Shown piece by piece: positions 1-14,796 of a stretch of 14,796 nt of DNA (position 1 is the first letter of the stretch; each line of letters starts with the position of its first letter). The translations under genes and the position numbers were made by a program. Below the pieces are notes generated by a model. That model did no database searches, was not told where the DNA came from, and saw nothing but the letters and a program-made list of their open reading frames with translations. The DNA is from Candidatus Micrarchaeota archaeon (GTDB lineage Archaea; Micrarchaeota; Micrarchaeia; Norongarragalinales; SBBD01), in assembly GCA_043813365.1 (NCBI GenBank), contig JBDRLB010000077.1, positions 1 through 14,796 on the forward strand, read 5' to 3'.

Positions 1-35
1 TTGATTTTTTCATCAAAAATGACTTGGAATGTCAT
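1..35 (-). CDS. 5' fragment of a probable RelE/ParE-family type II toxin (runs off the window edge)
   Basis: Reverse strand reads ATG ACA TTC CAA GTC ATT TTT GAT GAA AAA ATC (MTFQVIFDEKI). Its ATG (35-33) overlaps the antitoxin TGA (34-32) in an ATGA arrangement. The N-terminus resembles the first beta-strand of RelE/ParE toxins. Only 11 codons are visible. Confidence 0.55.
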   Translation of the reverse strand, partial: MTFQVIFDEKI

Positions 36-316
36 TTAAGGTCACTTCTTTTGATTCCCGCCTCCTTCAATACCTCATCGAGCGTAACCGTCCTGCGCTT
101 CCCTGCCTTGATTTCCGCATCTATTTTCATCATTTTTTTGACGGCAAGCTCATCAATGATTTCATCGTGCGTTTTTACCCCCCCATATTCCTTTCCAAGC
201 ATCAGCACCCCCGCACGGAACACTTCCGCTTTCGTTTTGAAATACCCCATGTCAATCAGCCCATCAACGATCCTTGCCAAAGCACCATCCATCCTCACGA
301 CCATCTCCACAACCAT
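32..316 (-). CDS. Ribbon-helix-helix (CopG/Arc/MetJ, ParD-like) antitoxin
   Basis: VVRMDGALARIVDGLIDMGYFKTKAEVFRAGV matches the RHH pattern (strand, helix, G-x-F-x-[ST]-x-[AS]-E-x-x-R). The C-terminal AGKRRTVTLDEVLKE is typical of RelB/ParD-type antitoxins. Start is uncertain: GTG 319, ATG 316 or ATG 304. Confidence 0.75.
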   Translation of the reverse strand: MVVEMVVRMDGALARIVDGLIDMGYFKTKAEVFRAGVLMLGKEYGGVKTHDEIIDELAVKKMMKIDAEIKAGKRRTVTLDEVLKEAGIKRSDLK

Positions 317-329
317 CACCCACGAATTG

Positions 330-360
330 ATACCAAATTAATACCAAAATGATATTAAAA
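330..360 (-). promoter_or_regulatory. TA operon promoter: TATA-like box with a tandem direct-repeat candidate operator
   Basis: The minus strand has TTTTAATAT (360-352). ATACCAAA occurs at 330-337 and 341-348, an 11-bp period, between the TATA box and the start codon. Confidence 0.5.
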
Positions 361-548
361 AGGCATGTTTTCGTGGTTTTAGCCCTTCCGGAAACTAATA
401 GGATTCGAATTCTAATTAAAGCCTTTTTCGGAGGGTGGGTTCGGGTGCCTACAGTCGACAAAATGCTGCCTTCAAATTTTTTTGCTCGGGTTTATTCCGG
501 GTTTCGCATTAATCCCGATTATTTGTAAGGGATATGTGGAAAGGATAT

Positions 549-1085
549 TTATCTGTTGAGCCGACGTTCACGGAGATTTGCCAATATGTGGTTCACGCTT
601 TCCTCGACGTTCATCTCATGCGTATTTACCGTAATTTCGGGATTTTTTGGCCTTTCATAAGCATCCACGATATCAGCAAAGTTCTTAAGTTCCCCTTTGG
701 ACGCCTTCCCGTATAGCCCTTTGGGATCCCTTTTTCTGCATATTTCAACTGGGCAGTTCACGAATATTTCCACATGCCTAGGCACCATGCCCCGCACAAC
801 GATACGTCCCTCTTCATAAGGAGAAAAGTACGGTGCGATTGCAATGATCCCCCTCGCATTCAATCTCTTGCAAATTTTTCCTCCCCGGATGATGGACGAA
901 ATTCGGTCCTTTTTTTCAAATCCTAGCTCCCTACCGATTTTTGCCCGGATCTCATCGCCGTCCACAACCTGAACCCTTCTGCCCATTTCCTTGAGCTTTA
1001 TTTCTAGTTCCCTTGCAAGGATTGTTTTTCCTGAGCCTGAAATGCCCGTCAGCCATAATGTAAACGGCATCCCTTTTTCGATCAT
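549..1085 (-). CDS. cysC: Adenylyl-sulfate (APS) kinase
   Basis: P-loop WLTGISGSGKT, plus VDGDEIR, LGFEKKDR, FSPY, RDPKGLY and AYERPKNPE motifs of APS kinase. 178 aa. Minus-strand TATTAAATA (1115-1107) lies about 22 nt upstream of the ATG, suggesting a leaderless mRNA. Confidence 0.93.
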   Translation of the reverse strand: MIEKGMPFTLWLTGISGSGKTILARELEIKLKEMGRRVQVVDGDEIRAKIGRELGFEKKDRISSIIRGGKICKRLNARGIIAIAPYFSPYEEGRIVVRGMVPRHVEIFVNCPVEICRKRDPKGLYGKASKGELKNFADIVDAYERPKNPEITVNTHEMNVEESVNHILANLRERRLNR

Positions 1086-1140
1086 AACATTATAGCTTCA
1101 ACAACGTATTTAATATCAGGCGAACCCATCCCCCGTTTCA

Positions 1141-1148
1141 TATATAAA
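1141..1148 (+). promoter_or_regulatory. Probable TATA box of radA
   Basis: TATATAAA in the divergent cysC-radA intergenic region, about 110 nt upstream of the radA ATG. Confidence 0.5.
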
Positions 1149-1258
1149 CCTCCCCTGCGATTCTATTTCATCTGAAAAAAGGTTTTCCCGATCAACCGCA
1201 AAATCGGATATGCCGAAAATGCCTCCATTATGGAAGCTTGTGGCGTTAGGTGGTAGGA

Positions 1259-2272
1259 ATGAAAGAGGAACTTATGCAAGAGATGGAGCCGGAGCTCTCC
1301 GAGCCCAAAATGAAGGAGAAGAAGGGGAAGAAAATCACCTCCATTGAGGACATCCCCGGTGTTGGCGGCACAATCGCCTCGAAATTGAAGGATGCGGGCT
1401 ACGATACGCTTATGACGCTCGCAGTTTCCATGCCAGTTGAGTTGGCGGAAGTTGCAGGAATCGGCGAGGGCACTGCGATAAAAGTAATTAATGCCGCACG
1501 CGAAGCGCTCGACATGGGCTTCGAAACCGGCGACAAAGTCCTTGAAAGAAGGAAAATAATCTCCAAAATCACAACTGGCTCTAAGGAGCTCGACAATTTG
1601 ATAGGCGGCGGAATTGAAACGCAGGCAATAACTGAAGCATTCGGAAAATTCGGCTCCGGCAAATCGCAGCTCGCATTCCAGCTCTGCGTGAACACCCAGC
1701 TTCCGATTGAACAAGGTGGCCAAGGGGGAGGTGTTTTATTCATCGACTCGGAAAACACTTTCAGGCCGGAAAGGATTGCGCAGATTGCAGCTTCAAGAGG
1801 ACTTGACCCGGATGCAATCCTGAAAAACATCCATATTGCACGCTCTCAAAACTCCGACCACCAGATGCTCCTCGCTGACAAAGCAGGGGACACAATCAAG
1901 GAGCACAACATCAAGCTGATAATCGTGGACTCCCTCACATCCGCCTTCAGGAGCGATTATGTCGGAAGGGGGCAGCTTGCGGATAGGCAGCAAAAGCTCA
2001 ACAAGCACCTCCACACTCTTCAAAAACTGGCCGACATGTACAACGTTGCGGTTTACGTAACAAATCAGGTGATGGACAGGCCCGACATTTTATTCGGCGA
2101 CCCCACGGCGCCTATCGGAGGCAACGTTCTGGCACACCAGAGCACTTACAGGCTGTATTTCCGGAGGAGCAAGGAGGACCGGAGGGTTGCGAAAATAGTG
2201 GACTCCCCCAACATGCCTGATGGGGAATGCGTTTTCAGAGTTACGGAAAAAGGACTAGAAGACGCCGAGTGA
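1259..2272 (+). CDS. radA: DNA repair and recombination protein RadA (archaeal Rad51 homolog)
   Basis: N-terminal HhH domain ([15 protein letters not shown]), polymerisation motif FETG, Walker [22 protein letters not shown], Walker [33 protein letters not shown] and IVDSP. No intein. SD AGGTGG at 1248-1253 favours ATG 1259 over GTG 1250. Confidence 0.98.
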
Positions 2273-2329
2273 GATTTTTATTACTTTTTTTCTTTTCATG
2301 GTCGTGGAGGGGCAAAATAGGTGATGGAA

Positions 2330-2704
2330 ATGGAATATGAGGAAAATGCCTCCGTGATGGAGGAAGAAACAAAGGAAGGCCGCCCCAAAACCGCTCCCAA
2401 AAGGAGGCCGATCAAGGGGCTGAAACTGAATTTCCCTTATTCGCAGGCGAACATCGACCTCGCGCTTTGGGAAAGCAGGATGAGCGAAAAAGGGAAACTG
2501 ATGCCCTCGAGCATCTCCTTGCGCTTGCAGGATGCGGATCCAAGTGTGACTAGAAACGCAATCTATTTCAAGGCGGCTGATGCACTGAAAATCGCGAACA
2601 TACTGCAGAATTTCGCTTACTCGGCGATGCAGGAGGATCAGGATAAGCGGTTTGAATTCTCAAAAATTCGGAAAGGCGCACCGGAGCCGATAAAGGCCAT
2701 CTGA
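2330..2704 (+). CDS. Hypothetical protein, possible PC4-like (beta4-alpha) ssDNA-binding fold
   Basis: SD AGGTGA at 2319-2324 precedes ATG 2330. A charged, probably disordered N-terminus is followed by strand-like segments LKLNF, IDLALWE, SISLRL and AIYF, then an amphipathic helix AADALKIANILQNFAYSAM. Same strand as radA, 57 nt downstream. The fold is inferred only. Confidence 0.7.
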   Translation: MEYEENASVMEEETKEGRPKTAPKRRPIKGLKLNFPYSQANIDLALWESRMSEKGKLMPSSISLRLQDADPSVTRNAIYFKAADALKIANILQNFAYSAMQEDQDKRFEFSKIRKGAPEPIKAI

Positions 2705-2711
2705 CCTCGAT

Positions 2712-3164
2712 TTACCATTTGTAGATTTTCCTTATCGCCTCCTCCAGCATTATCTCGAGCAGCATCGCCTCGTCATCGCTCAGATTTATTTGCATTGCAT
2801 TTACCTGCCCATCCTTGCTCTGCGAGGATAGTTTGAATAAATACCCGAAATCCCCTTTAGTGACCACGAGCGCATTGTTTTTCGTGTCAGCCGAGGAAGC
2901 GTACTCCCCCTTATTCGGGTCATGGAACAGGTTTGCCATCTTGGAACGTCCCTTCAAGACCAATAATATTTTGCTAATATCCACATCAGCCAATTTGAAG
3001 CTCAGCTTGCTCCCCCAATCAAAAGCGCGCTCCTCCTTCTGCCTTGCAATTTCAAAGAAGATGCTCTCCTTCTCAACCGCAAAGTCGAACTGGCACGCGC
3101 TTCCCTGCATCGCCTTGTTCGGCTTGTAGAATTTCAGCTGGTTCCTGTATCTCTGCTGTTCCAT
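2712..3164 (-). CDS. Whirly-like single-stranded nucleic acid-binding protein
   Basis: 150 aa from ATG 3164, with SD GGTGA at 3173-3169 containing the nth stop codon. Motifs FYK, IFFEIA, FDWGSKLSFKL, FHDPNKG, GYLFKLS, INLSDDEAMLL and a terminal W match the order of plant WHY domain motifs as I recall them. Confidence 0.8.
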   Translation of the reverse strand: MEQQRYRNQLKFYKPNKAMQGSACQFDFAVEKESIFFEIARQKEERAFDWGSKLSFKLADVDISKILLVLKGRSKMANLFHDPNKGEYASSADTKNNALVVTKGDFGYLFKLSSQSKDGQVNAMQINLSDDEAMLLEIMLEEAIRKIYKW

Positions 3165-3168
3165 AAAA

Positions 3169-3843
3169 TCACCCTCGCTTTCCCACACCTATCTTCTTGC
3201 ACATCCCATTTAATACGCATTCCGAACACAGCGGTTTTTGCGCTTTGCAGATTTTCCTTCCGAGCATAATGACCTGGACGTGCAAAGGAATTTTCAATTT
3301 GTCCGGAACCGCCTCCTCCATGAATTCATGCGCCTTCCCATAGCTCATTTTTTCCGGTATCAGCGGGATCCTTTTTATCACGCGGAAAATATGCGTATCT
3401 ATAGGGAACGCCGGCTTCCCGAAAGCGAACGCGACAATTACCGCTGCGCTCTTCGGCCCGATCCCATCGAACTGCATCAAATAATTGCGTGCATCAGCGG
3501 GGGAATAATCGGAAAGGAAATCCAAATCCAATTTGCCTGTTTTTTCCTTTATTTGCCTCAAAACGGTCCTGATCCGTTTCGCCTTGATATTTGCGAGGCC
3601 ACCTTCCTTGATCGCTTTTGCGATTTCACGTTCAGGCGAATTTAGCAATTCATCCCAATTTTTAAACCGCCTTTTCAATTTTCTGAACGCCTTCCCCGAA
3701 TTCACATCATTGGTGTTCTGCGAAAGTATCACGTTCACCAACGCATCAATCGAAGGCAATTTCCAGGGCTTTTCCGAACCGTATTCCTTATCCAGCAACC
3801 TATTGATCCGGATTATTTTTGCCCGTAATATTTTCCCTTCCAT
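3169..3843 (-). CDS. nth: Endonuclease III (HhH-GPD DNA glycosylase/AP lyase with 4Fe-4S cluster)
   Basis: ILSQNTND, GGLANIKAKRI, HhH FDGIGPKSA with the catalytic Lys, FPIDTHIFRV with the catalytic Asp, and CKAQKPLCSECVLNGMC (C-x6-C-x2-C-x5-C). Confidence 0.93.
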   Translation of the reverse strand: MEGKILRAKIIRINRLLDKEYGSEKPWKLPSIDALVNVILSQNTNDVNSGKAFRKLKRRFKNWDELLNSPEREIAKAIKEGGLANIKAKRIRTVLRQIKEKTGKLDLDFLSDYSPADARNYLMQFDGIGPKSAAVIVAFAFGKPAFPIDTHIFRVIKRIPLIPEKMSYGKAHEFMEEAVPDKLKIPLHVQVIMLGRKICKAQKPLCSECVLNGMCKKIGVGKRG

Positions 3844-3896
3844 TATCCCACCAAAATCGTCCGTCCCCCCCCGCCATCAACCCCGGTTCCCGCCCT

Positions 3897-4865
3897 TCAG
3901 CCAATCTGCTCCCTTACTTCCGCCATCAGCCTGTCAGCTGCGGAAATCGCATCCAGCCCGTGCAGGAAGTTTGCGCCTCCCACCATCTCGTGCCCACCGC
4001 CGCTCCCGTGGAACCGTTTTGCCGCAGCGTCTATCTCCTTCCCCACGTTGAATTTCCCAAGTTCCATTGCCCTTCCCTTCACAGCTGAAATTTTCCCTTC
4101 CTTTTGGTTGGCAACAACAGCAAAATCGCATCCTAAACCTATGAGAGCGGAGGCGCATTTCAGCTCAAAAGCAGAAACCTGCGTTGATGCTATCAGCAAT
4201 TCCCCGATCCTCTCGTACTGCGCCCTCTTCACCGCCTCCATCACTGCAATTTTTTCCGCAGCGTCTTCCCTTACCTCCAGCAATTGGTAAATCTCCTGCA
4301 GATCCATGGTGCTTCCTTTCAGGCATTCGCCCAGCGCTTCTATGGCGGAATTATTTGCGCTTTTCAGGTCGGCCGTATCGGAAACAATTCCGAGGGCAAT
4401 CAATATCGCATCCCCATCCTCGACTTTCCTCCCCATTGCGCCGAAAAGCCCGAAAACTATTTCGCTGCAGGAAGTTTTTTTCGGGTCGCAATAAATTTCT
4501 CCCTTCATTGGGTGATTATGCAAGTGGTGGTCGATGGCGATGATTTTCCCCTTGAACTTTCCGAATTCGTTGTGCAAGTTCCCAAGCAGTGCCGGAGTGC
4601 TCACATCCATGAAAATCAAATTATCATACTTTTCCAATTCCCCCTCCCCGAAAGCATCCAGGTTCAAATTGAGCCTTCCCCATACTTTCCGTGCCTGGGA
4701 GTTTACGGAGTCAATTCTGCGGACCTCCGCGCCTTTTACCAGATGCTGCAATGCGAATGCGCTCGCTACCGCATCCACGTCGCCTATTGAATGGAACGTA
4801 ATTGCCGTATTTCCTTTCAGGGATTTCAACTCCTTTACCAAATCATTAAAAGTCAGCGATCCCAT
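3897..4865 (-). CDS. DHH/DHHA1 family phosphoesterase (NrnA-like)
   Basis: TFHSIGDVDAVAS (H...DxD), FMDVS, IDHH, GIVSDT and C-terminal GGGH motifs. Start set at ATG 4865 (MGSLTF) because minus-strand TTTTATA (4895-4889) lies about 24 nt upstream and the longer ORF would overlap the JAB gene. Confidence 0.9.
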   Translation of the reverse strand: MGSLTFNDLVKELKSLKGNTAITFHSIGDVDAVASAFALQHLVKGAEVRRIDSVNSQARKVWGRLNLNLDAFGEGELEKYDNLIFMDVSTPALLGNLHNEFGKFKGKIIAIDHHLHNHPMKGEIYCDPKKTSCSEIVFGLFGAMGRKVEDGDAILIALGIVSDTADLKSANNSAIEALGECLKGSTMDLQEIYQLLEVREDAAEKIAVMEAVKRAQYERIGELLIASTQVSAFELKCASALIGLGCDFAVVANQKEGKISAVKGRAMELGKFNVGKEIDAAAKRFHGSGGGHEMVGGANFLHGLDAISAADRLMAEVREQIG

Positions 4866-4908
4866 AATTATCGAACGTCTTCCCCGAATATAAAACGGAC
4901 GGATCAAC

Positions 4909-5280
4909 ATGGAAATTCTGATATCCCTGAACGCGCTTGAAAGCGCCCTATATGCAGCCAAGAGCACGCACCCGCACGAATTCGTTGGCCTTTTCCGGGA
5001 GAAAAACGGAATTCTTTGCGAGCTCCTTGTTGCGCCATTGACCATTTCAGATGAGAGTTCTGCCACTTTCCCGGTTTATGCGATTCCCACGGATCCCACA
5101 ATAGTCGCTACCTACCATTCCCATCCGAGCATGGGCACGCCCCGTCCCTCGAGGGCGGACCTTAACCTCTTTTCAAGGCATTACCGCATCCATTTCATTT
5201 CCTCCTATCCTCACACTACCCAAACCACCCGTGCGTTCTCCAACCTGGGGGAGCCGCTCAGTTTTACCATTGTTGACTGA
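4909..5280 (+). CDS. JAB/MPN+ (JAMM, Mov34) domain metalloprotein
   Basis: Conserved Glu (HPHEFVG) and HSHP-x6-PSRAD zinc-binding motif. 123 aa. Divergent from the DHH gene with a 43-nt gap. Confidence 0.9.
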   Translation: MEILISLNALESALYAAKSTHPHEFVGLFREKNGILCELLVAPLTISDESSATFPVYAIPTDPTIVATYHSHPSMGTPRPSRADLNLFSRHYRIHFISSYPHTTQTTRAFSNLGEPLSFTIVD

Positions 5281-5374
5281 TAATCAACAAAAAACCCTTT
5301 TAATGGAGAGGTTTTTATACCTCCATAAATTATCCCTAAGTGGGTAGCGTTATCCCTTTCATGGTTGCATTATT

Positions 5375-8300
5375 ATGAACGTAAAAGGATTGCTTTTTTT
5401 CATCCTCTTGCTTTCCCTTTCTATTGAAATTGCCGCGGTTCCGACGCAGATCGCTTCCGGCCAAAGTGTCCTTACAATACCGCGGCATAAAATATTCCAA
5501 TCCCAGACGAACCCGAACGAAATTTGGGCGATTTTCCAAGGCCCCGGAACTGGAAATAGCAACAACTTCATCAAAACAACCAATGGCGGTACAACCTGGA
5601 GCACTCCCCTTACAATTAGGTATTACCTCGATTATCATGCCTCCCTTGATGGCGATTCGGCCGGCAACCTATACGTTGCTGATCCCGACTCGGGCGCCGC
5701 TTATTTCCGCAAAATTAATTACCCGGGGGCCAGCACATCCGATTTCGGGCCTGAAATGCACCTCACTTCCGCCTACATCCCTTCGGGGGTGGGCACCCGC
5801 AACAACGTGATTGCGCAAAGCACAAGTAGCATTTTCGTCATTGCACGGACATCCGTAAATACTGTCGGCAATGTGCGTTATTTCCATTCCACTGATGGTG
5901 GCGTTACCTTTCCGCAGCAAGGATGGGTTTCCGATACCGGATATGACAATGTGAGGATCGGCTCAATTCTCGTGAACGGCCAGCCTGCTGTAGTGATGTG
6001 GTACAGCGACGATTCTTCACCAACCGGCTGGGGGTACCGCTATTTCATCTGGAACGGCAATTCATTCGTCGCAAACCCCGACTCAACGATCATCTGGGGT
6101 TCAAAAATCTACAGGAGGGAATACGGGATGAATTTCGTTGACGGCGACATGCATGTAATATATGTGGATAATTCCGGCCATCTGCTCCATTCATGGAAGC
6201 CCTACAATGGGGGAACCGGCTCTTGGAACCAGATTACAGTTGAAACGCTTCCCTACAATCCCGCCGCCTGGCATCCCTCCCTTACAAGGCACGGCAACGA
6301 CCTTTACCTGTTTTACATTAGGCAGGTTACGAGCACTTCCGGAAACAACGCCGTGATGTACCGCAAGTGGAACAAGGCTACCAGTTCATGGAGCGCTGCA
6401 ACCATGCTCTCAACCACAACCGGAGTCGCCAACGGATTCCCGCACGGGCCCGCAGCTGTCAATCCATCATCAACATTCGTACCGGTTATTTGGGATGCGG
6501 CTGGAGCTATTATGTTCGAAAAAGTCTCAACTACCGCCCAGCCATCAGCTTCCCCCTTGCCCAGCCCTTCAGCAAGCCCTTCCCCATCACCCAGCCCCTC
6601 CCCATCAATTGCCCCCTCGCCTTCACCTAGCGCGTCCCCATCGCCCCAACCCCCTGCAGGAAATATTTTTGGGAATATCAACTATATAGGAAACATCCGC
6701 GGCCTCGGCGCAGCCAAGAGATGCACCTTGTTCACATCTTCCTTGCCATTATATGCAACAGCAATCAATGCGCATTTTGCCGGCAGCTCCGGAACCTCCT
6801 GCGCATTAGGCATTTACCAGGCAGCGAGCAATAGCCTCTCAACCCTTCTCTATTCCAGCAGCAGCTTTTCCGTGACTAGCTCAACTGCTTCCTGGCATAC
6901 CCAATCCCTCCCCAATCTTTACCTTGCTGCAGGCCAGTACGGCTTATGTGTAGTTTGCAACGGCGACTGGGGATATACTGCCCTCGATGCCCCTGCAGGA
7001 GTCATGCGCGGCAATTCCGTCCTGAGTTTCGAGAACCCTTTCACTTCAGCAGGCCAATGGACTGGCACTTACAATGCGACTATTTTCGCCAATGTGACAA
7101 CAAGCGTTCCCTCTCCATCCCCCTCTCCAAGCCCTTCACCATCGCCAAGCCCGTCCCCTTCGCCGACGAACACTCCGCCCTCAGTTACAATCACCTCCCC
7201 AACTTCAGGCGCGATAGTATCCGGAACAACCGCGATCGCTGCAAGTGCATCGGATTCTGATGGTGCCATTGCAGGCGTGCAGTTTGCGATTGATGGCACA
7301 AATTATGGAGCCGAGGATACCTCCCTTCCCTACTCCATTTCCTGGAACACCCTTGCCTACTTAAATGGAGGCCATACCCTTACAGCAACTGCAAGGGATA
7401 ATTCTGGTGCAAACACCACATCCCTCCCCATTCCGGTGACCGTTTCAAACAACCAGCCCCCAACAATAAGCATTACCTCCCCTCCGAATGGTGCAACCGT
7501 AACAGGCACCATCACAATATCCGCATCCGCATCGGACTCCGACGGCACAATAGCGGGCGTGCAGTTCCAAATTAATACGGTGCCATTTGGTCCAGAAGAT
7601 ACAAGCCCGCCTTATTCCATCCCGTGGGGTACGACGTTGGAGGCAAACGGAAACAGGGCAATTAATGCGATAGCGAGGGACAATGCGGGAGCTACTGCTG
7701 CAAGTTCTTTTGTGGGCGTAATTATAAGCAACGACCTGACCCCTCCCGCAGGCATAAATTCCCTCTCAATCCCCTCGTTCACTTACAACGCCATTACCCT
7801 CCAATGGAACGCTCCCGGAGATGACGGCTCAACGGGCACTGCAGCTTCGTATGATATCCGCTACTCTTCCTCAGCAATCACGGATGCAAACTGGGCAAGC
7901 GCGACCCAAGTCGTAGGCGAACCCGCACCAGCTGCTGCGGGCACATCCCAGACCTTCTCAGTATCAGGGCTAAATTCCTTAACAACATATTATTTCGCAA
8001 TTAAAACATCCGACGAAGCTCCCAACTGGTCGCCCCTCTCAAATGTCGTTTCCCAAACAACAACCGCCCCGCCGGATACGACCCCCCCGACAATCACGAG
8101 CCATGCGCCTACTGGGACAATACCCGCAGGCACGACTCAAACCGGGCTTAATGCCATTACGAACGAAGCCGCAATCTGCAGGTACAGCCAAACTCCTTCT
8201 TCGGCATTCTCCAGCATGACCTTGTTTACTACCAACGGCGGCCTCGCCCACTCATCGCTTATAACGGGTTTGCAAAACGGCCAACCATACTATTACTATG

Positions 8301-11300
8301 TGAAATGCAACGACACGGCGGGCAATTTGAACAATACCGATTACCGCATATTTTTCTCTGTAGCAGTTGATTCCACTCCTGCTACTTTAAGCAACGGCGC
8401 ACCAGCCGGCACCCTCCCATATGGGACAACAACCGCAACCCTCAGCCTAAACACCAACGAAGCCGCAACATGCAGATACGGCACAACCCCCAATGTCGCA
8501 TATTCCTCGATGACCAACATATTCACAACAACCGGAAGCACTTCCCATTCGTACTCCTTGGCGGGTTTGCAAAACGGTCAAAACTACTATTATTACGTTA
8601 GATGCAACGACACCGCCGGAAACACGAATCCCATCGATTACCCGGTCACTTTCTCTATTGCCGGCGATACAACCCCTCCGGCACTTAGCAACGGCGCTCC
8701 AACAGGCGAGCTTCCCCAAGGCACAACCAACACGACCCTAACCCTGAACACCAACGAGGTTGCAACCTGCCGCTTCAGCACCACTCCCAACGTCGCATAT
8801 GCCTCCCAGACAGGCATCTTCACAACAACGGGCGGAACAACCCACTCAAGGAACCTTTATACGCTCCAGGACGGCCGCACTTATCCGTATTACGTCAGAT
8901 GCAACGATACGGCCGGCAATTTCAATGGCGCCGATTACTCCATCATTTTCAGCATTTCAGCAGACACGATTCCTCCTCTTTTAAGCAACGGCGCACCAGC
9001 CGGCACCCTCCCATATGGGACAACAACCGCAACCCTCAGCCTAAACACCAACGAAGCCGCAACATGCAGATACGGCACAACCCCCAATGTCGCATATTCC
9101 TCGATGACCAACACATTCACAACAACCGGAAGCACTTCCCATAACCAAACCTTAACAGGCTTGCAGAATGACCAGACATACAATTACTACATTAAATGCA
9201 TCGACGCTTCCGGCAATCCGAACACTGCTGATTACACGGCCTCCTTCAGCATCGCAACCGATGCGATTCCCCCAGCTGCAATTGCGGATTTGATTGCTTC
9301 CTCCTCAACCGATGTACAAGTTTCCTTGCAATGGACCGCTACCGGAGACGATGCTTCCGTAGGGACAGCAACCTCATATGACATCCGATACTCTATCTCA
9401 ACAATCACGGATGCAAACTGGGCAAGCGCGGTGCAGATTCCTGGAGAGCCCGTGCCGCGATCAGCCGGCAATTTGGAGACGTACACAGTAACTGGCCTGT
9501 CTTCCTCAACAACATATTATTTTGCCATCAAGGTCGCAGATGAGCGCAACAATTGGTCGCCGCTCTCAAACATCGCCTCGCGCACGACAAGCCCGGCACC
9601 TGACACAACCCCGCCGATCCTAATCGGTGCAAGGCCCGCGCCAAACACGATTTACCCTGCCGGAACCACTTCAGTCATATTCGGATTCGATACGAACGAG
9701 CCAGCTAGCTGCAGGTATTCCACTTCCCCCGGCACGCCATTCGCCTCAATGGCCAATCCCTTCACCGCAACCGGGAACAGCCATTCCGCAACTGCGATCG
9801 CCCTCCAGAACGGCCAGGCATATTCCTACTATTCCAGATGCAATGACACTTCCGGAAACCTCAACAATTCCGATTACCTCATCACGTTCAGCATCGCACA
9901 GCCCCTGCAGGACCTCTCACCAGCCGTATTCCTGAATTCGCCCTCCTCCGGAACAACTGCATACCGGGAGAGCATGCCCTTCAATTGCTCCGCAACCGAT
10001 GATGCAATGCTAACCCGCCTGGAGCTTTTCGGGGACTTCTTCGGCGAATGGAGCATGATTGCAAATTATTCCGTTTCGGGCACCGGGGCCGCCCGCACCT
10101 TCAATATCGACCTCTCATCCGTCCCTGCAGGGAATTACAAATGGAACTGCCGTGCAACTGATAACGCTACCAATGCCGGCTGGTCCGCATTGAACTATTC
10201 CATCTCCCTGATAAACCGCGTCTATAATTTCACGCTTGCCCCGGCACAGGACATTTTCTCGGCCAGGAACGATCCCGACACCATTACCCAACGCACGTTC
10301 ACTTTGCAGAACACGGGCAACCAATACCTCTCAAATTTCGCATGCATTGCGGATAAAACGTGGGTCAACATCATCGGATGCCCAGTTGGCCTCCAACCCG
10401 GAAATTCCACACTGGTAACGTCCCAATACAATACCTACGGGCTTCCTGAAGGATTGCATGCGGTCCTGCTTAATTTCTCCCAGCCGAATTCCAACTTCCA
10501 TATGGCAATTGTTACGGTCAACGTCACCTCCGTGCCCGTCAACCTTATACCGGCAATTTCAAATGTTACAAACATTACGGGTTATAATTCGGAAATAATC
10601 AGTTGGAACACCGACATCAATAGCAATTCAACAATCTATTTTGGCACCAATGACACGAACCTTGACCGGAACTCCTCACTGAATGACAATGTGCTTTTGC
10701 ACTCAATAACCCTTCAAGGGCTCTCGCCCCAGACGCATTATTATTACCGTGTGGGCAGCTGTTCCATTGGAGGCTGCTCAAAATCCGCACAATATGATTT
10801 CATTACGAATCCCCTTCCAGCCGGTTGCGCCTATTCCAATCCTTCCTGCCCTTCAGGTTATTCCTGCCAGAGCAATACCTGCGTTTATAGCGGCGGTGGT
10901 GGAGGCGGCGGTTACAGCCCCCCAAGCGCCCCGAGGATTACCGGCACCGCAACTCCTGCGCCTTCGGCAAAACCCGCTGGAAACGCAACACCGACCGTTT
11001 CGGGCTCCTCATCGCAATTCGTTGATCTGAAGCAAGAACTCGAATACGGCATTCAAGATCTGCCCGAACAGGACCAGTTAGACATACAGGATCTCATTAA
11101 GGAGGCTGAACGCCTGAAACGAGAGGGCAATGATTCGCAGGCGCTCCTAGTACTGCAAAAGGCCAGGGCACGGCTGAACGATGCAGTGCAGAAAACAAAG
11201 GAAACCAAGGCGGGATTCGGCTGGCAGATCAGCGTTCTAGTTATTATTCTTATTGCAGCAGGAGCGATTTTCTACGTGAACAAGAAGCACAAGGACATGA

Positions 11301-11362
11301 AAAAAATGGAGCTGCTGCCTGAAATCAAGGTTCCTCCCGTGAAGCCCAGGGACGCTTTGTAG
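5375..11362 (+). CDS. Giant membrane-anchored modular surface protein (Asp-box beta-propeller, Ig-like and FN3 domains, Cys-containing Ig-like repeats)
   Basis: 1995 aa. Signal peptide; Asp-boxes KTTNGGTTW and HSTDGGVTF; two (SP)n linkers; two Big-like domains (PPSVTITSP...TATARDNSG); two FN3 domains (LQW.APGDD...YYFAIK); five ~99-aa repeats with TNE.A.CRY and YY..C.D..GN; further Ig/FN3 domains; a Cys-rich knot, poly-Gly, a charged helical domain, a C-terminal TM helix and a basic tail. Many N-x-S/T sequons. Confidence 0.92.
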   Translation: MNVKGLLFFILLLSLSIEIAAVPTQIASGQSVLTIPRHKIFQSQTNPNEIWAIFQGPGTGNSNNFIKTTNGGTTWSTPLTIRYYLDYHASLDGDSAGNLYVADPDSGAAYFRKINYPGASTSDFGPEMHLTSAYIPSGVGTRNNVIAQSTSSIFVIARTSVNTVGNVRYFHSTDGGVTFPQQGWVSDTGYDNVRIGSILVNGQPAVVMWYSDDSSPTGWGYRYFIWNGNSFVANPDSTIIWGSKIYRREYGMNFVDGDMHVIYVDNSGHLLHSWKPYNGGTGSWNQITVETLPYNPAAWHPSLTRHGNDLYLFYIRQVTSTSGNNAVMYRKWNKATSSWSAATMLSTTTGVANGFPHGPAAVNPSSTFVPVIWDAAGAIMFEKVSTTAQPSASPLPSPSASPSPSPSPSPSIAPSPSPSASPSPQPPAGNIFGNINYIGNIRGLGAAKRCTLFTSSLPLYATAINAHFAGSSGTSCALGIYQAASNSLSTLLYSSSSFSVTSSTASWHTQSLPNLYLAAGQYGLCVVCNGDWGYTALDAPAGVMRGNSVLSFENPFTSAGQWTGTYNATIFANVTTSVPSPSPSPSPSPSPSPSPSPTNTPPSVTITSPTSGAIVSGTTAIAASASDSDGAIAGVQFAIDGTNYGAEDTSLPYSISWNTLAYLNGGHTLTATARDNSGANTTSLPIPVTVSNNQPPTISITSPPNGATVTGTITISASASDSDGTIAGVQFQINTVPFGPEDTSPPYSIPWGTTLEANGNRAINAIARDNAGATAASSFVGVIISNDLTPPAGINSLSIPSFTYNAITLQWNAPGDDGSTGTAASYDIRYSSSAITDANWASATQVVGEPAPAAAGTSQTFSVSGLNSLTTYYFAIKTSDEAPNWSPLSNVVSQTTTAPPDTTPPTITSHAPTGTIPAGTTQTGLNAITNEAAICRYSQTPSSAFSSMTLFTTNGGLAHSSLITGLQNGQPYYYYVKCNDTAGNLNNTDYRIFFSVAVDSTPATLSNGAPAGTLPYGTTTATLSLNTNEAATCRYGTTPNVAYSSMTNIFTTTGSTSHSYSLAGLQNGQNYYYYVRCNDTAGNTNPIDYPVTFSIAGDTTPPALSNGAPTGELPQGTTNTTLTLNTNEVATCRFSTTPNVAYASQTGIFTTTGGTTHSRNLYTLQDGRTYPYYVRCNDTAGNFNGADYSIIFSISADTIPPLLSNGAPAGTLPYGTTTATLSLNTNEAATCRYGTTPNVAYSSMTNTFTTTGSTSHNQTLTGLQNDQTYNYYIKCIDASGNPNTADYTASFSIATDAIPPAAIADLIASSSTDVQVSLQWTATGDDASVGTATSYDIRYSISTITDANWASAVQIPGEPVPRSAGNLETYTVTGLSSSTTYYFAIKVADERNNWSPLSNIASRTTSPAPDTTPPILIGARPAPNTIYPAGTTSVIFGFDTNEPASCRYSTSPGTPFASMANPFTATGNSHSATAIALQNGQAYSYYSRCNDTSGNLNNSDYLITFSIAQPLQDLSPAVFLNSPSSGTTAYRESMPFNCSATDDAMLTRLELFGDFFGEWSMIANYSVSGTGAARTFNIDLSSVPAGNYKWNCRATDNATNAGWSALNYSISLINRVYNFTLAPAQDIFSARNDPDTITQRTFTLQNTGNQYLSNFACIADKTWVNIIGCPVGLQPGNSTLVTSQYNTYGLPEGLHAVLLNFSQPNSNFHMAIVTVNVTSVPVNLIPAISNVTNITGYNSEIISWNTDINSNSTIYFGTNDTNLDRNSSLNDNVLLHSITLQGLSPQTHYYYRVGSCSIGGCSKSAQYDFITNPLPAGCAYSNPSCPSGYSCQSNTCVYSGGGGGGGYSPPSAPRITGTATPAPSAKPAGNATPTVSGSSSQFVDLKQELEYGIQDLPEQDQLDIQDLIKEAERLKREGNDSQALLVLQKARARLNDAVQKTKETKAGFGWQISVLVIILIAAGAIFYVNKKHKDMKKMELLPEIKVPPVKPRDAL
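6540..6655 (+). repeat. Low-complexity Ser-Pro linker 1 (degenerate 6-nt repeat, coding)
   Basis: Encodes PSASPLPSPSASPSPSPSPSPSIAPSPSPSASPSPQPP with varied codons. Confidence 0.8.
7109..7165 (+). repeat. Low-complexity Ser-Pro linker 2 (coding)
   Basis: Encodes an uninterrupted (PS)n run with varied synonymous codons. Confidence 0.8.
8386..8548 (+). repeat. 163-nt direct repeat, copy 1
   Basis: Identical to 8980-9142 except T8520 vs C9114. Offset 594 nt equals two 99-aa units. Confidence 0.95.
8980..9142 (+). repeat. 163-nt direct repeat, copy 2
   Basis: 162/163 identical to 8386-8548. Confidence 0.95.
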
Positions 11363-11368
11363 GAATAT

Positions 11369-11698
11369 TTACATGCGGTAAATCTGCAGGTGCGGAACGC
11401 CGCCGATTTTCCTTACCATCCTTTTATCGATTTCAATGTTTTTTGATGCTGCAGCGATTGCCTTCTTCCCCACCAGATTGATATTCCCCGCCCCCTCGAC
11501 CATTTTGCCGACCTCGGCAACCGTGACACTTTCCCCCTCGTAAAAGGAGCGGTATTTCTGCAAATCAAGCACCAGCTCCCCCTCCTCGAAAACCTTCCCC
11601 AATAGCTCCTTGTCGCAAATCGCGACCACCCTCCTCTCAACCATCCTTCCCCCTTCCATAATTAATTTCCTGTTGATTTTACCCTTCATAAAAATCAT
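11369..11698 (-). CDS. DUF424 family protein
   Basis: VVAICDKELLGK, FYEGE, NINLVGKKAI and IGGVPHLQI are the characteristic motifs of this archaeal family. Start may be ATG 11689. Confidence 0.88.
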   Translation of the reverse strand: MIFMKGKINRKLIMEGGRMVERRVVAICDKELLGKVFEEGELVLDLQKYRSFYEGESVTVAEVGKMVEGAGNINLVGKKAIAAASKNIEIDKRMVRKIGGVPHLQIYRM

Positions 11699-11752
11699 GC
11701 TCCATCCATTCCTTCCCCCTCCTTCAAAATTTTCCCGTCCATTCCCAAAATT

Positions 11753-12805
11753 TCAAAGCAGGCTTTCGTACAGCTTTACTAGCTTCTCAATTGAAATATT
11801 GATGTCCCGCTTCTTTATCTCCTCCTTCGCACGCTCGCTCATCTCCTCCTGCAGGCTTTTGCTACCCGCAATCTCCTCAAGTTTTATTTTCATCAATTCC
11901 GGGGTTTTGCATGCGAATCCGCCCTTCCCAACAACCTCCTCAAGAATATCTAAGTCAGAAATCAGCACGGGCGCTCCGCACGCCATCGCCTCCTGCGCAA
12001 CCAACCCTTCCGTCTCCACCAACGACGGCATCATCAGTGCGCTGCAAGCCGCATACGAATCCAGCAAATCCTGCCTTGGCAGCCTCGGGAAGAATTGCAC
12101 GTTCTTCGGCGCCATGGATTTCAGCTGCGCCTCCATTGTCCCGTTCCCCGAAATTATGAACTGCATCTCCTTCATCTGCTTTGCGATTTCAATGATCCAT
12201 TCCGGCTGCTTGCTCGCATCCAGCCTCCCTATGAAAAGCGCAAACGGCTTATCCATAGTGTATTTTTTACGGAACCTCTCCCCATTTGCACCCCTGTAAT
12301 TATCCAAATTTATCCCGTTCGCAATGACTTCGACTTTCTTTTTCAGCCCCCTTTTTTGGAACATGCTTTTTCCGGCCTCCGTCTGCGTAATCACTCTGTC
12401 AAACCTGTTCAGCAGCCAGATTTCATACTTCCAAATCCCCTCCTCCAGCGTCTTGGGGGGGCTGGAGCCGAACATCGCCTCCAAAGTATGCAGCGGGATG
12501 AAATGCGCCGTAATCACTTTCGGGACTTTGAAACCTGTTGCAAATAATCCCATCGTATACTGCGAATGCGCATGCACCACGTCGCATTTTATGGGTTTGG
12601 TGGGCGGGATTATCACATCGTATTGCGGCAGCATCGGGTCCTTCAAAAAAGGAAGGGAGACGGTTTTGAAATCATATTTCTTCGTTACCCTTCCGGTATA
12701 TAGTGTGACATCCGTTTTCCTGCTAAGCATCGGCAGCGTCTCCTGCAAATAAGTGGCAACCCCGTTATTCTGCTCAAATGTGTCCGAAATCCACGCGATC
12801 TGCAT
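11753..12805 (-). CDS. Glycosyltransferase family 4 (GT-B, retaining)
   Basis: MQIAWISDTF...NGVAT, DVVHAHS, VIANGIN, FIGRLDASK and ETEGLVAQEAMACGAPV (E-x7-E). Minus-strand TTATTAA (12833-12827) lies about 22 nt upstream of ATG 12805, favouring it over TTG 12820. Confidence 0.93.
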   Translation of the reverse strand: MQIAWISDTFEQNNGVATYLQETLPMLSRKTDVTLYTGRVTKKYDFKTVSLPFLKDPMLPQYDVIIPPTKPIKCDVVHAHSQYTMGLFATGFKVPKVITAHFIPLHTLEAMFGSSPPKTLEEGIWKYEIWLLNRFDRVITQTEAGKSMFQKRGLKKKVEVIANGINLDNYRGANGERFRKKYTMDKPFALFIGRLDASKQPEWIIEIAKQMKEMQFIISGNGTMEAQLKSMAPKNVQFFPRLPRQDLLDSYAACSALMMPSLVETEGLVAQEAMACGAPVLISDLDILEEVVGKGGFACKTPELMKIKLEEIAGSKSLQEEMSERAKEEIKKRDINISIEKLVKLYESLL

Positions 12806-12835
12806 GAACGGCTTACTCAAAGCAAATTAATAAGT

Positions 12836-13321
12836 TTACCTTCCACTCGTCCTTCCGAGGATTTTATTGTAATGTTGCAGCAAAAATGAACGATATCCGG
12901 TTTCGATCTCCTTGCGCTGCACCAATAGGGATGCAACTTTTTGCGATTTTTCGGCAACTATCATTCTCTCAACCCTTCCAATTTCTTTCGTATCTTCCCA
13001 CTGTGCGGGTTTAAGCCGTTTGTTGAGTTGTTCCGCAACCACTTGGTGCAATTCTTGCCTTGCCCTGCTGTAATTGACTGCCTTTGCGATCAATTCCACC
13101 GGAGGCCTGAACTCGTGCCTTTGGCCGTCATGTGCTACTGCGATTTTATTCCCGGGAATATTGTGAAAATCCATCAGGTTTCCGGGAATATTATCCTCGC
13201 CGATTCTATCCACTGTACCCTTCTTCGCCATTGTCTCGAGTTCTGCTGTTTTGTCGATTAATCTTTCGATATATTTTATATGCTCCCGAAATTGCTTGAC
13301 AGTGAACGGTTCTATTTTCAT
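12836..13321 (-). CDS. Hypothetical protein (161 aa, charged, predicted helical)
   Basis: MKIEPFTVKQFREH...; protein-like composition. It fills the gap between rnpB and GT4. The longer 205-aa version overlaps the RNase P RNA and is rejected. Confidence 0.7.
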   Translation of the reverse strand: MKIEPFTVKQFREHIKYIERLIDKTAELETMAKKGTVDRIGEDNIPGNLMDFHNIPGNKIAVAHDGQRHEFRPPVELIAKAVNYSRARQELHQVVAEQLNKRLKPAQWEDTKEIGRVERMIVAEKSQKVASLLVQRKEIETGYRSFLLQHYNKILGRTSGR

Positions 13322-13336
13322 AGAAATCAACAAAAT

Positions 13337-13615
13337 GGGCGGCGGGCCGTAGTCTCCCTTCTGTTTCCGACGGCATTGGTCTGAGCGAGCTAAACTCTTG
13401 CGTCGAGCGCATTTCTGCGCCTGCAAAAAGGGCCGTTTCACTCCTGCTTGCAAAAATGCTCTTATTCATCATTGCTTTTGCAAGCTGATATCGTTTCTGT
13501 TCCCCTCCTTTGCCTTAGGCAAGGCGTATTGCAGCCTATGCAAGACATATTCTATCCCGACGGGGAGAACTTCCTCCTTTGCTTTTCAGCTAGGTTAGCC
13601 ATCCACCCGCCACCC
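13337..13615 (-). ncRNA. rnpB: Archaeal RNase P RNA (compact, ~279 nt)
   Basis: P1 GGGUGGCGGGU/GCCCGCCGCCC; P2 GAUGGC/GCCGUC; CR-I GAGGAAGUUCUCCC pairs (P4) with CR-V AACAGAAGGGAGACUA; CR-II ACAGAAAC; CR-III UGAAAC; CR-IV AGACCAAUG; P5 CGUCGGG/CUCGACG; P12 GCUUGCAAAAG/UUUUUGCAAGC. A U-tract follows the 3' end. Confidence 0.95.
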
Positions 13616-13637
13616 TCCAGAATTGTGCATTCCCCGG

Positions 13638-13654
13638 TATTTATTACTTCCTTT
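13638..13654 (-). promoter_or_regulatory. BRE/TATA promoter of rnpB
   Basis: The minus strand has purine-rich AAAGGAAG followed by TAATAAATA (13646-13638), about 23 nt upstream of the 5' end of P1. Confidence 0.6.
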
Positions 13655-13789
13655 GGGGGCAATTCGCATGTTGCTGGGCGATGGAGCGGCAAATGTCACT
13701 AATATGCGCCTTTTATTCCGATTTTTCGGGGGGGATTTATTAACCCCGAAATAGAAGTATTTTGTACCCAATTCCGCATGGTGATTTCG

Positions 13790-14796
13790 ATGAAACCCCT
13801 CCCCTGGCTGCTGCTTTTCGCTCTTCTTGCCCTGCCTTTTTCCAATGCGCTAACGCCTGTGACCGCCTGTGGGACGCTTTCCAAAGCCAGCGAAACCTAT
13901 ATTCTTCAAAATGATGTCTCCGCAGCAAAAACCTGCTTCAAAATAACCGCTAGCGGGATTACATTGGATCTGGGGGGCAAAACCGTCACATTTGATAATG
14001 CTGTACCTGTAAACCAGCCCAACGCCGGCTTTGAATCAGGAACGGTAAATTGGGATTTCTCAAATGCACCGAACGCGCAAGTTGTCACTACCGGTCAATT
14101 CCCTGCTGCAAAAGGCAGCTGGGCACCTGCAGAAATTCAAACCCATGCATTGAAATTCACCGCACCCTCAACGGCACAATATGTTTATTCGGACTGGATA
14201 CGGTTAGAAGACAATGACAACTACATGCTATCCGCCCTGATTGTCAGGCCTGTTAATTACAAAGGCATAATTGTCGCATCCCTTGAGGATCAGAACGGCA
14301 ATTCCTGCAATGCAGCGGACAATAGCTGGCCGGACCTCACCCACTGGTCCGCTGATAACTGCTTACTCACTTCGAGGACATCGCAATATGTGCGCGTAAA
14401 ACTAGGAGTCAGTGGAGGCGTCGGCAGCAATGATGTGTATTTCGATGCGATACAGGTTGTTCGTGGAAGCACACCCAATAGGATTATTGAACACATGTAC
14501 TCTGACTCAAATACGTATGGAGTTTACATTGCCGGCGGGCTTCAAAACGTCCGGGTTACTAACGGCAATATAGTTCAGGGGCAGTCAAAATCGGTTTACG
14601 CTGCAGGGATTCAGAGCCAATATAGTAACCAACGGACTGAAATCGACCATATTAATATGGTCATGTCCGGTTCGGATAATTGGGGCTTTTTCTTGGTGCA
14701 GAGCGTATCCTATGCGAAAATCCACCACAACACGATTACGATTAACGGAAAAAGGACACATTACGGCCACGAGGCAGTAGGAGGTGCGATATTGCT
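13790..14796 (+). CDS. Secreted right-handed parallel beta-helix protein with an inserted CBM-like jelly-roll domain (3' partial; absent from the ORF track)
   Basis: Manually translated open frame to the window end. Signal peptide MKPLPWLLLFALLALPFSNA; beta-helix cap CGTL...YILQNDV...TCFKITASGITLDLGGKTV; insert PNAGFE...VYFDAIQV; then beta-helix coils YGVYIAG, NVRVTNGNI and AKIHHNTI. SD GGTGA at 13780-13784; alternative ATG at 13778. Confidence 0.88.
   Translation, partial: MKPLPWLLLFALLALPFSNALTPVTACGTLSKASETYILQNDVSAAKTCFKITASGITLDLGGKTVTFDNAVPVNQPNAGFESGTVNWDFSNAPNAQVVTTGQFPAAKGSWAPAEIQTHALKFTAPSTAQYVYSDWIRLEDNDNYMLSALIVRPVNYKGIIVASLEDQNGNSCNAADNSWPDLTHWSADNCLLTSRTSQYVRVKLGVSGGVGSNDVYFDAIQVVRGSTPNRIIEHMYSDSNTYGVYIAGGLQNVRVTNGNIVQGQSKSVYAAGIQSQYSNQRTEIDHINMVMSGSDNWGFFLVQSVSYAKIHHNTITINGKRTHYGHEAVGGAIL

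Follow-up and report, generated by a model that had tools for sequence, protein, structure and literature searches.

A stretch of 14,796 nucleotides (nt) from a Candidatus Micrarchaeota archaeon (assembly GCA_043813365.1, contig JBDRLB010000077.1, positions 1 to 14,796; the whole stretch is hereafter called the window) carries six closely spaced genes, which encode the recombinase RadA, a small protein termed hyp127, a Whirly-domain protein, an endonuclease III-like glycosylase (Nth), a DHH-family phosphoesterase (DHH322) and a JAB-domain protein. The locus raises the question of whether these genes belong together functionally. The first-pass annotation proposed a candidate DNA repair module, in which two PC4/Whirly-fold proteins would pass single-stranded intermediates between base excision repair (Nth, DHH322) and recombination (RadA); the JAB protein might then serve as a regulator. 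The evidence presented here is better explained by a lineage-specific neighborhood than by a conserved six-gene repair machine, and within this neighborhood Whirly and hyp127 are likely accessory single-strand binders; we put the probability of this explanation at about 0.6.

The open reading frame (ORF) coordinates confirm the six genes and their positions, with alternative starts for RadA (1250/1259) and hyp127 (2321/2330). The spacers measure exactly 57, 7, 4, 53 and 43 nt if the starts at 2330, 3164 and 4865 are taken, which agree with database proteins of 124, 150 and 322 amino acids (P0007, P0001 and P0020, respectively). The orientation was also as first described, RadA and hyp127 converging on a DHH322-Nth-Whirly unit and JAB diverging from DHH322:

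1250..2272, plus strand: RadA recombinase, 340 amino acids from the GTG at 1250 (start at 1259 in the first-pass annotation)
2273..2329, plus strand: T-rich spacer between RadA and hyp127, 57 nt, with T runs directly after the RadA stop
2330..2704, plus strand: hyp127, 124 amino acids from 2330, or 127 from the GTG at 2321
2712..3164, minus strand: Whirly-domain protein (PF08536), 150 amino acids
3169..3843, minus strand: Nth, endonuclease III-like HhH-GPD glycosylase with FeS loop, 224 amino acids
3897..4865, minus strand: DHH322, stand-alone DHH/DHHA1 phosphoesterase of the NrnA/TmPDE type, 322 amino acids
4887..4895, strand not assigned: TATA-like AT-rich box (hexamer TTTATA), read from the sequence of the 43-nt divergent DHH322/JAB spacer
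4909..5280, plus strand: Prok-JAB (JAMM) metalloprotease-like protein (PF14464), 123 amino acids

The tight packing is nothing special: the remaining gaps within the window are 94, 6, 54 and 15 nt, and genes in this 1.34-Mb genome are generally separated by short spacers.

Conservation of the six-gene arrangement

Each protein was searched in 40 relatives of the same order, profiles were mapped on 33 fetched loci (L labels), and a wider sample comprised 201 genomes from the phylum. The genomes surveyed were metagenome-assembled and 68–98% complete, and an absence therefore stands for 'not found'. They are referred to by G labels: G000 is the genome of the window (1.34 Mb, 88.6% complete, the window being its contig C77), G001 to G005 belong to the same genus, G007 represents a sister genus, and G006 and G008 two other genera of the family.

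Two congeners showed the full six-gene order: it is complete in G002, and in G003 an insert of 2.7 kb separates hyp127 from Whirly. The short contigs from G001 and G004 were consistent with this order. G005 possesses JAB, DHH322, Nth, hyp127 and RadA but not Whirly; no remnant of the gene was found in the corresponding 650-nt gap and no copy elsewhere in that genome. In the sister genus, JAB diverges from DHH322, which is directly followed by Whirly without Nth; hyp127 lies 1.6 kb off and RadA on another contig. In G006 and G008, DHH322 faces the hyp127-RadA pair, and neither Nth nor Whirly occurs at this site. The backbone of the family accordingly consists of two facing pairs, JAB with DHH322 (adjacent in nine family genomes) and RadA with hyp127, and what lies between the pairs varies: Nth and Whirly in the genus of the window, Nth alone in one of its members, Whirly alone in the sister genus, and either unrelated genes or no gene at all in the two other genera. 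Collinearity within the family extends to the unrelated GT4 and DUF424 genes, which points to shared descent and not to selection for a module. An AlkD-like gene for DNA alkylation repair (PF08713, 115 bits; L036 3090-3782) occurs in the sister genus, where it is flanked by DUF424 and JAB and lies two genes away from DHH322-Whirly.

Outside the family the arrangement was not recovered. In other families of the order no partner gene among the five occurred within 6 kb of Whirly, neither in a mapping of 15 loci nor in one of 20; Nth and Whirly shared a contig in none of the eight genomes outside the genus that hold both, and JAB and DHH322 were adjacent in none of the 20 non-family genomes holding both, although they are 3–4 kb apart in G021 and G025. 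A conserved module would show the same genes adjacent in distant genomes, and such adjacency was not found: the full order is confined to the genus, and an adjacency not conserved in relatives, one of the two outcomes that the first-pass annotation had named as refuting its module, is largely what was observed. The proposed six-gene module does not hold as a conserved unit.

The third gene encodes a Whirly-family protein

The product of the third gene matched PF08536 with 39.3 bits (cut-off 23, E 7e-10), and relatives from other orders reached 40–45 bits. A profile of the family matched plant WHY1 at E 2.9e-10, in an alignment that includes the FDW and FHDP-KG stretches, and, together with it, PBF-2, WHY3, WHY2 and StWhy2 at E values from 3e-10 to 7e-9. 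An AlphaFold2 (AF2) model built from 22 relatives (pLDDT 89.5) displayed eight strands and two helices arranged as two tandem beta4-alpha repeats, which were superposable on solved Whirly structures. The best Foldseek match of this model was Arabidopsis thaliana WHY1 (4koo; E 3.4e-8, TM 0.77), followed by StWhy2, PBF-2 and the trypanosome proteins MRP1/2. Judged by profile and modeled fold, the earlier label 'Whirly-like' can be sharpened: the protein is a genuine member of the family at the level of sequence, beyond a resemblance in fold.

With the plant Whirlies (WHY1/2/3 and potato PBF-2 p24) it shares the PF08536 match, the aligned motifs and the two beta4-alpha repeats. It differs from them by its length of only 150 amino acids, by an identity to WHY1 of about 21%, and by a prokaryotic gene context behind a DHH-family gene. 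The sequence alignment did not extend over the N-terminal strands of the archaeal protein, so that it does not bear on the KGKAAL motif of the plant proteins. Trypanosoma brucei MRP1/MRP2 belong to the same fold class (E about 7e-8, TM 0.70). Further prokaryotic or viral cases of the fold have been reported in preprints, in whose accessible text sPC4/Whirly domains are described for ChmC of jumbo phages and for the N-termini of Shedu proteins; according to the same text these were recognized by structure only, whereas the archaeal protein is a sequence-level PF08536 member.

Some relatives of the archaeal Whirly occur in longer frames or proteins of 243–327 amino acids with the Whirly domain at the C-terminus (L059 5998-6813, L061 5689-6438; P0033, P0044), which may represent N-terminal extensions or mis-called starts. 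A representative library of metagenome proteins contained 1169 Whirly clusters at E<=0.001, or 422 under the stricter limit of E<=1e-10, and a protein atlas listed clusters of ~150-residue Whirlies labeled Bacteria and tailed phages. A tblastn comparison of the Whirly of the window with 50,697 phage records gave no match, nor did scans of viral contigs with two Whirly representatives.

In the accessible text of a plant review, Whirlies are called plant-specific and are treated as protectors of organelle genomes (PMC9070903), and the term 'archae' does not occur in a review of PC4-like domains (PMC7549692). A passing statement in the accessible part of a 2026 paper places the Whirly/Pur-alpha family in all three domains (PMC13392464). 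Literature searches combining Whirly with archaea, Micrarchaeota/DPANN, phage, Verrucomicrobia, PriA and RecJ listed no work on a Whirly protein from archaea or Verrucomicrobia. What the present analysis adds is an archaeal member of the family together with a gene linkage that suggests a connection to nucleases.

RadA, Nth, DHH322 and JAB

The identities proposed for the four other named genes were borne out by family profiles. RadA exceeded the equivalog cut-offs of NF003301 (488.4 bits, cut-off 259) and TIGR02236 (484 bits, cut-off 361), matched the Pfam family Rad51 with 310.8 bits and has an N-terminal HHH_5 domain; orthologues at E<=1e-30 were present in 38 of the 40 relatives. In four of the genomes RadA matched in two pieces (residues ~21–139 and 139–340) within single frames of 773–1088 amino acids (G020:C12, G024:C50, G030:C29, G036:C26), a pattern expected for an intein near the P-loop.

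Nth contains an HhH-GPD domain (58.2 bits) and an EndIII_4Fe-2S motif (24.8 bits), including the FeS loop C-x6-C-x2-C-x5-C. Its closest solved structure is Deinococcus radiodurans EndoIII-1 (4unf, E 3.5e-34), with which GIGPKSA aligns to GVGVKTA and IDTH to VDTH, so that the presumably catalytic Lys and Asp are in place. The scores stayed below the equivalog cut-offs (TIGR01083, 103.4 bits against 211.7; best model NF053634, 140 against 400). By its domains, Nth is thus classified as a member of the endonuclease III family and not as a named equivalog, and a substrate like that of EndoIII-1 would be an assumption from similarity.

DHH322 matched PF01368 with 38.6 bits (cut-off 28.1) and DHHA1 (PF02272) with 24.3 bits, just below the cut-off of 25.9. 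The motifs H-x3-D-x-D, D87, DHH (112-114), D163 and GGGH (289-292) were invariant in 15 sequences, the full set of motifs I–IV plus GGGH of a stand-alone NrnA-type DHH/DHHA1 enzyme. Among solved proteins, TmPDE (5o1u, E 3.3e-17), NrnA/Rv2837c, GdpP and family II pyrophosphatases come closest; E values to TmPDE, NrnA and Rv2837c range from 3e-17 to 3e-15, and RecJ proteins match weakly. In contrast to NrnA itself, DHH322 is far below the NCBIfam equivalog cut-off (21.6 bits against 350), and its substrate can only be deduced from this kinship; it is best read as a putative nanoRNase or pAp-phosphatase-type enzyme. A complex prediction for DHH322 and Whirly scored 0.02, which gives no verdict either way.

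The JAB protein matched PF14464 (Prok-JAB) with 37.6 bits (cut-off 25) and contains E...HSHP...S-x-x-D, which we take to be the JAMM motif.

Whirly genes behind DHH-family genes

Whirly was found in 24 of the 40 relatives and in 25 of the 201 genomes from the phylum, 20 of which belong to the order of the window and 5 to other orders of the class. In other families of the order the gene resides in a block composed of RNase HII, S8e, TFIIB, in part a RecJ-like gene, Whirly, Trm1, a ~500-residue protein and TrmB. The RecJ-like DHH/DHHA1 gene is located upstream of Whirly on the same strand at 10 of 20 loci in four families, and at six of these ten loci the two genes are separated by less than 40 nt or overlap. 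Among the NCBIfam models, that of the HAN nuclease fits this gene product best, but with a score far below the cut-off. Outside the family, the protein of ~465–600 amino acids, which has no Pfam match (e.g., L028 3930-5402), and TrmB adjoin Whirly at 14 of 20 loci from the order (both genes were called at 13 of them, and L039 was assigned by clustering).

We considered whether DHH322 and the RecJ-like gene found ahead of Whirly in other families could be orthologous. This was rejected, as G000 has a separate RecJ-like orthologue, which is encoded on contig C26 and is not followed by Whirly, and the DHH322 orthologues of other families are encoded elsewhere in the genomes, away from Whirly. The DHH-family genes that Whirly follows thus belong to two different paralogue types, in at most two independent juxtapositions, and G000 contains only three DHH genes; this recurrence is no more than suggestive.

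In one family of another order (f18; L057 5370-5990, L058 5361-5990), Whirly follows a His_Phos_1 gene at a distance of 4 nt and is followed by a GTPase gene. This histidine phosphatase is a phosphoesterase neighbor unlike the DHH genes.

Verrucomicrobial Whirly genes

A nine-sequence alignment of non-archaeal representatives was used as query in a scan of species-representative genomes, which yielded 128 Whirly relatives; all 80 loci that were kept are Verrucomicrobiota records. Stand-alone Whirly genes, which score about 33 bits with PF08536, are widespread among records of Akkermansiaceae, Luteolibacter, Haloferula and Prosthecobacter; the matches include a record of a Haloferula chungangensis strain. 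Among the 47 loci of at least 8 kb on which neighbors were counted, priA was located divergently upstream of Whirly in 20, mostly at a distance of 69–237 nt, and gyrA upstream on the same strand, following gyrB, in 12.

hyp127, a candidate partner of RadA

The second gene product had been described as PC4-like. No Pfam or NCBIfam family matched hyp127 at E<=0.1, including the PC4, PurA and DUF2128 families of Pfam, and the support for a PC4-like character comes from its predicted fold and is weak. The AF2 model (18 sequences; pLDDT 75.6, core blocks 87–95) placed a disordered, charged N-terminus before strands at 32-38, 43-50, 64-70 and 81-83 and a helix at 85-119, the beta4-alpha topology also seen in PC4, YdbC/DUF2128 and Borrelia Pur-alpha. 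Single PUR repeats ranked first in both aligners (Borrelia Pur-alpha and PURA repeat III): VIA-align matched Borrelia Pur-alpha with Z 5.9, which is below the tool's caution line of Z 8 (rmsd 2.5, 72 of 74 residues aligned), and the best PUR match in Foldseek had E 0.09 and a probability of 0.98, all matches being at E>=0.04. Unlike the PC4-like single-repeat proteins, hyp127 thus lacks a match to a sequence family and scores in the range of chance; judged from the model, the PC4-like character is plausible. PC4 and PUR-alpha were stated to be absent from archaea in the accessible text of a 2013 paper (PMC3575825).

The hyp127 family is narrow, being present in 12 of the 201 sampled genomes and in only two families. 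The gene adjoins RadA in 7 of these 12 genomes, and the seven belong to three genera. In G023 a multi-OB (two-OB) RPA-like protein is encoded 10 nt upstream of hyp127, such a gene is also located upstream in G172, and in G039 and G171 hyp127 adjoins an RFC-like AAA+ protein. The neighbors of hyp127 are all DNA-handling genes, across three separate lineages. The protein is a narrow candidate recombination accessory protein, and its link to RadA is partly supported.

Single-strand-binding proteins in the same genomes

The first-pass annotation took the two PC4/Whirly-fold proteins for possible non-OB-fold handlers of single-stranded DNA and suggested checking for RPA/SSB and RadB. G000 encodes an OB-fold SSB with a core of 96 amino acids (PF21473, 36 bits; Sulfolobus SSB 1o7i, E 4.5e-7). 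RadB was not found in this genome at its 88.6% completeness, as only RadA itself matched TIGR02237, below the cut-off. Orthologues of the SSB were present in 38 of the 40 relatives, among them all 20 high-quality genomes, with or without Whirly. The profiles PF01336 and PF21473 detected the SSB, whereas PF08646 (a weak match of 18.9 bits) and PF00436 (no match) turned out to be poor probes in archaea. A replacement of SSB by Whirly, or by the proposed non-OB-fold handlers, can therefore be rejected. Whirly is accessory: it is patchily distributed, was lost without trace in a congener and coexists with the OB-fold SSB.

A multi-OB protein of ~400–540 amino acids is encoded just upstream of RadA in G011, G014, G017, G025 and G026, and near it in G018 and G021. 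The corresponding protein of G000 (contig C72; L052:730-2187) has OB and DUF2240 matches. This RPA-like protein is the more widely kept neighbor of RadA and is unlinked from it in the family of the window.

Two known systems offer a comparison. In bacteria, SSB and RecJ form a partnership of a single-strand binder with a DHH-family single-strand exonuclease, and by analogy Whirly may be paired with RecJ-like or NrnA-like enzymes; the binder differs here in having the Whirly fold, an OB-fold SSB is also present, and the DHH enzyme of the window is NrnA/TmPDE-like. ThermoDBP, a non-OB single-stranded DNA binder that replaced SSB in Thermoproteales, is a precedent for such a protein in archaea, but here the SSB is kept in 38 of the 40 relatives and is not replaced.

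Putative transcription signals

Only 4 nt separate the stop codon of Nth from the ATG of Whirly, and the 53-nt DHH322-Nth spacer is G-rich and has no TATA-like box. The TATA-like box at 4887..4895 is centered ~26 nt upstream of the DHH322 ATG on the minus strand and, considering the spacing of archaeal TATA boxes relative to the start, may be the promoter of a leaderless DHH322-Nth-Whirly transcript. As the spacers are 53 and 4 nt and the sole TATA-like box is located upstream of DHH322, these three genes probably form one transcript in this genus. The T-rich spacer downstream of RadA might act as an archaeal oligo-T terminator, which would be followed by a separate promoter for hyp127. A scan for sigma-70 promoters and terminators gave counts at the level of shuffled sequence (5 against 4.4 and 6 against 6.0, respectively) and is unsuited to archaea.

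Other features of the window

Upstream of RadA, positions 549-1085 on the minus strand encode an APS kinase (TIGR00455, 181 bits); in G002 the match is divided over two overlapping ORFs (L025 9908-10484), possibly by a frameshift. The pathway of the APS kinase product gives pAp, which belongs to a known substrate class of NrnA-type DHH enzymes.

Downstream of JAB, positions 5375-11362 on the plus strand encode a protein of 1995 amino acids of secreted or surface type that combines PS-rich linkers and numerous repeated domains with a membrane anchor at its C-terminus. This gene does not occur at the same position in G002, where JAB directly adjoins DUF424 and GT4. Weak partial homologues with 27–30% identity to its C-terminal ~120 residues are encoded by ORFs of 572–682 amino acids, which are located between hyp127 and Whirly in G003 and adjoin Whirly in G004.

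A probable lineage-specific neighborhood with two putative accessory binders

The observations are best accommodated by a lineage-specific gene neighborhood in which Whirly and hyp127 would contribute accessory single-strand binding. One transcript would mean that an NrnA-like exonuclease/phosphatase for short single strands is expressed together with both an AP-lyase glycosylase and a binder of single strands. Whirly would then be an accessory binder that acts together with DHH-family exonucleases at single-strand ends or gaps. As the gene follows a DHH-family gene of two paralogue types, we tentatively consider that Whirly binds single-stranded DNA and works with these exonucleases, a possibility that stays short of even odds. 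hyp127 would be a small, dimer-forming PUR/PC4-like nucleic-acid binder that acts with the strand-exchange and single-stranded-DNA-coating machinery, as its gene adjoins RadA, RPA-like or RFC-like genes in three lineages. A more far-reaching proposal is that stand-alone prokaryotic Whirlies constitute an unrecognized class of accessory single-strand-binding proteins beside canonical SSB. Their partners would be enzymes active at single-strand ends or stalled forks, namely DHH exonucleases in Micrarchaeota and, in Verrucomicrobiales, PriA or gyrase, and hyp127 would be an archaeal PUR/PC4-like mediator acting with RadA, the RPA-like protein and RFC; we regard this proposal as doubtful.

A number of points weigh against these assignments. 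The Whirly-DHH juxtapositions, two at most, lie within one order, and the RecJ-like gene and Whirly are part of the wider block of RNase HII, S8e, TFIIB, Trm1 and TrmB, so that their pairing could be inherited synteny. At the other 10 of the 20 same-order loci no RecJ-like gene is located upstream of Whirly, although two of these loci start within ~450 nt of Whirly (L037, with a Trm1 fragment, and L041, with nothing). It is likewise absent upstream of Whirly at all five loci from other orders of the class, where the neighbors are a histidine phosphatase, a GTPase, RelA/SpoT, ribosomal proteins and PAC2. The two DHH types differ in their likely substrates, one being nanoRNase/pAp-phosphatase-like and the other RecJ-like, and none of the 47 verrucomicrobial loci had a DHH gene near Whirly in a search with archaeal DHH profiles. 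The co-transcription of DHH322, Nth and Whirly is deduced from spacing, and all absences are drawn from incomplete genomes. Whirly-fold proteins can also bind RNA, e.g., MRP1/2, to which the model has a fold match, and ChmC, for which better binding to RNA than to DNA is given in the accessible text of a preprint. As to hyp127, its fold matches fall into the noise zone in which the tool warns of chance similarity, and hhalign gave a probability of 0.3% against the Whirly family, i.e., no profile relation.

Among the alternatives, an entirely fortuitous arrangement survives best, in which Whirly and hyp127 are small nucleic-acid binders, their neighbors say nothing about function and their coincidences with DHH genes and with RadA, RPA-like or RFC-like genes reflect chance in compact genomes. 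The small genomes, the gaps of 4–94 nt throughout the window, the wholly different Whirly neighbors at the five loci from other orders and the mere two independent DHH juxtapositions are all in line with this view. With three DHH genes in 1.34 Mb, however, the chance of a relocated gene landing directly behind another DHH gene is well under 1% by a rough estimate, the three different neighbors of hyp127 are all single-stranded-DNA or replication proteins, and verrucomicrobial Whirly stands beside priA or gyrA at 32 of 47 loci, which makes pure chance unlikely.

The archaeal Whirly could alternatively be mainly an RNA-binding or transcription-associated factor, comparable to PC4, plant PBF-2, MRP1/2 or ChmC, with only an incidental position among repair genes. 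This would fit the location of Whirly two genes downstream of TFIIB and near Trm1, TrmB, S8e and RNase HII in other families, the TFIIB gene directly upstream of Whirly in G019, the presence of MRP1/2 among the top fold matches and the RNA preference of ChmC. As the closest sequence relatives are the plant Whirlies that bind single-stranded DNA, the bacterial relatives adjoin priA and gyrA, and the RecJ-like and NrnA-like neighbors act on single-strand ends, we consider this role quite improbable.

The single repair module of the first-pass annotation is very improbable: all six genes are real and four have identities in DNA metabolism, the layout is kept in two further members of the genus, hyp127 associates with RadA, RPA-like and RFC-like genes and an AlkD-like repair gene is nearby in the sister genus, but the layout is confined to one genus with a congener that lacks Whirly, two genera of the family have neither Nth nor Whirly at this site, the Nth-Whirly and JAB-DHH322 linkages do not recur outside the genus and the family, respectively, the collinearity takes in unrelated genes, and RadA and hyp127 on the opposite strand cannot share a transcript with the other unit.

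Under the preferred explanation, that of a lineage-specific neighborhood, the six-gene 'module' itself is an ordinary lineage-specific gene order, and the wider significance lies in its two small proteins. hyp127 would be a candidate for a missing archaeal recombination mediator. The prokaryotic Whirlies of ~150 amino acids form a large family, which includes archaeal and verrucomicrobial clades with DNA-maintenance genes as neighbors; if the more far-reaching proposal for this family is true, the roots of a plant organelle genome-stability factor lie among prokaryotic genome-maintenance proteins. Should Whirly indeed work with DHH-family exonucleases, it would provide a simple model for Whirly biochemistry and would show how the reduced genomes of DPANN archaea supplement a minimal SSB/RadA toolkit.

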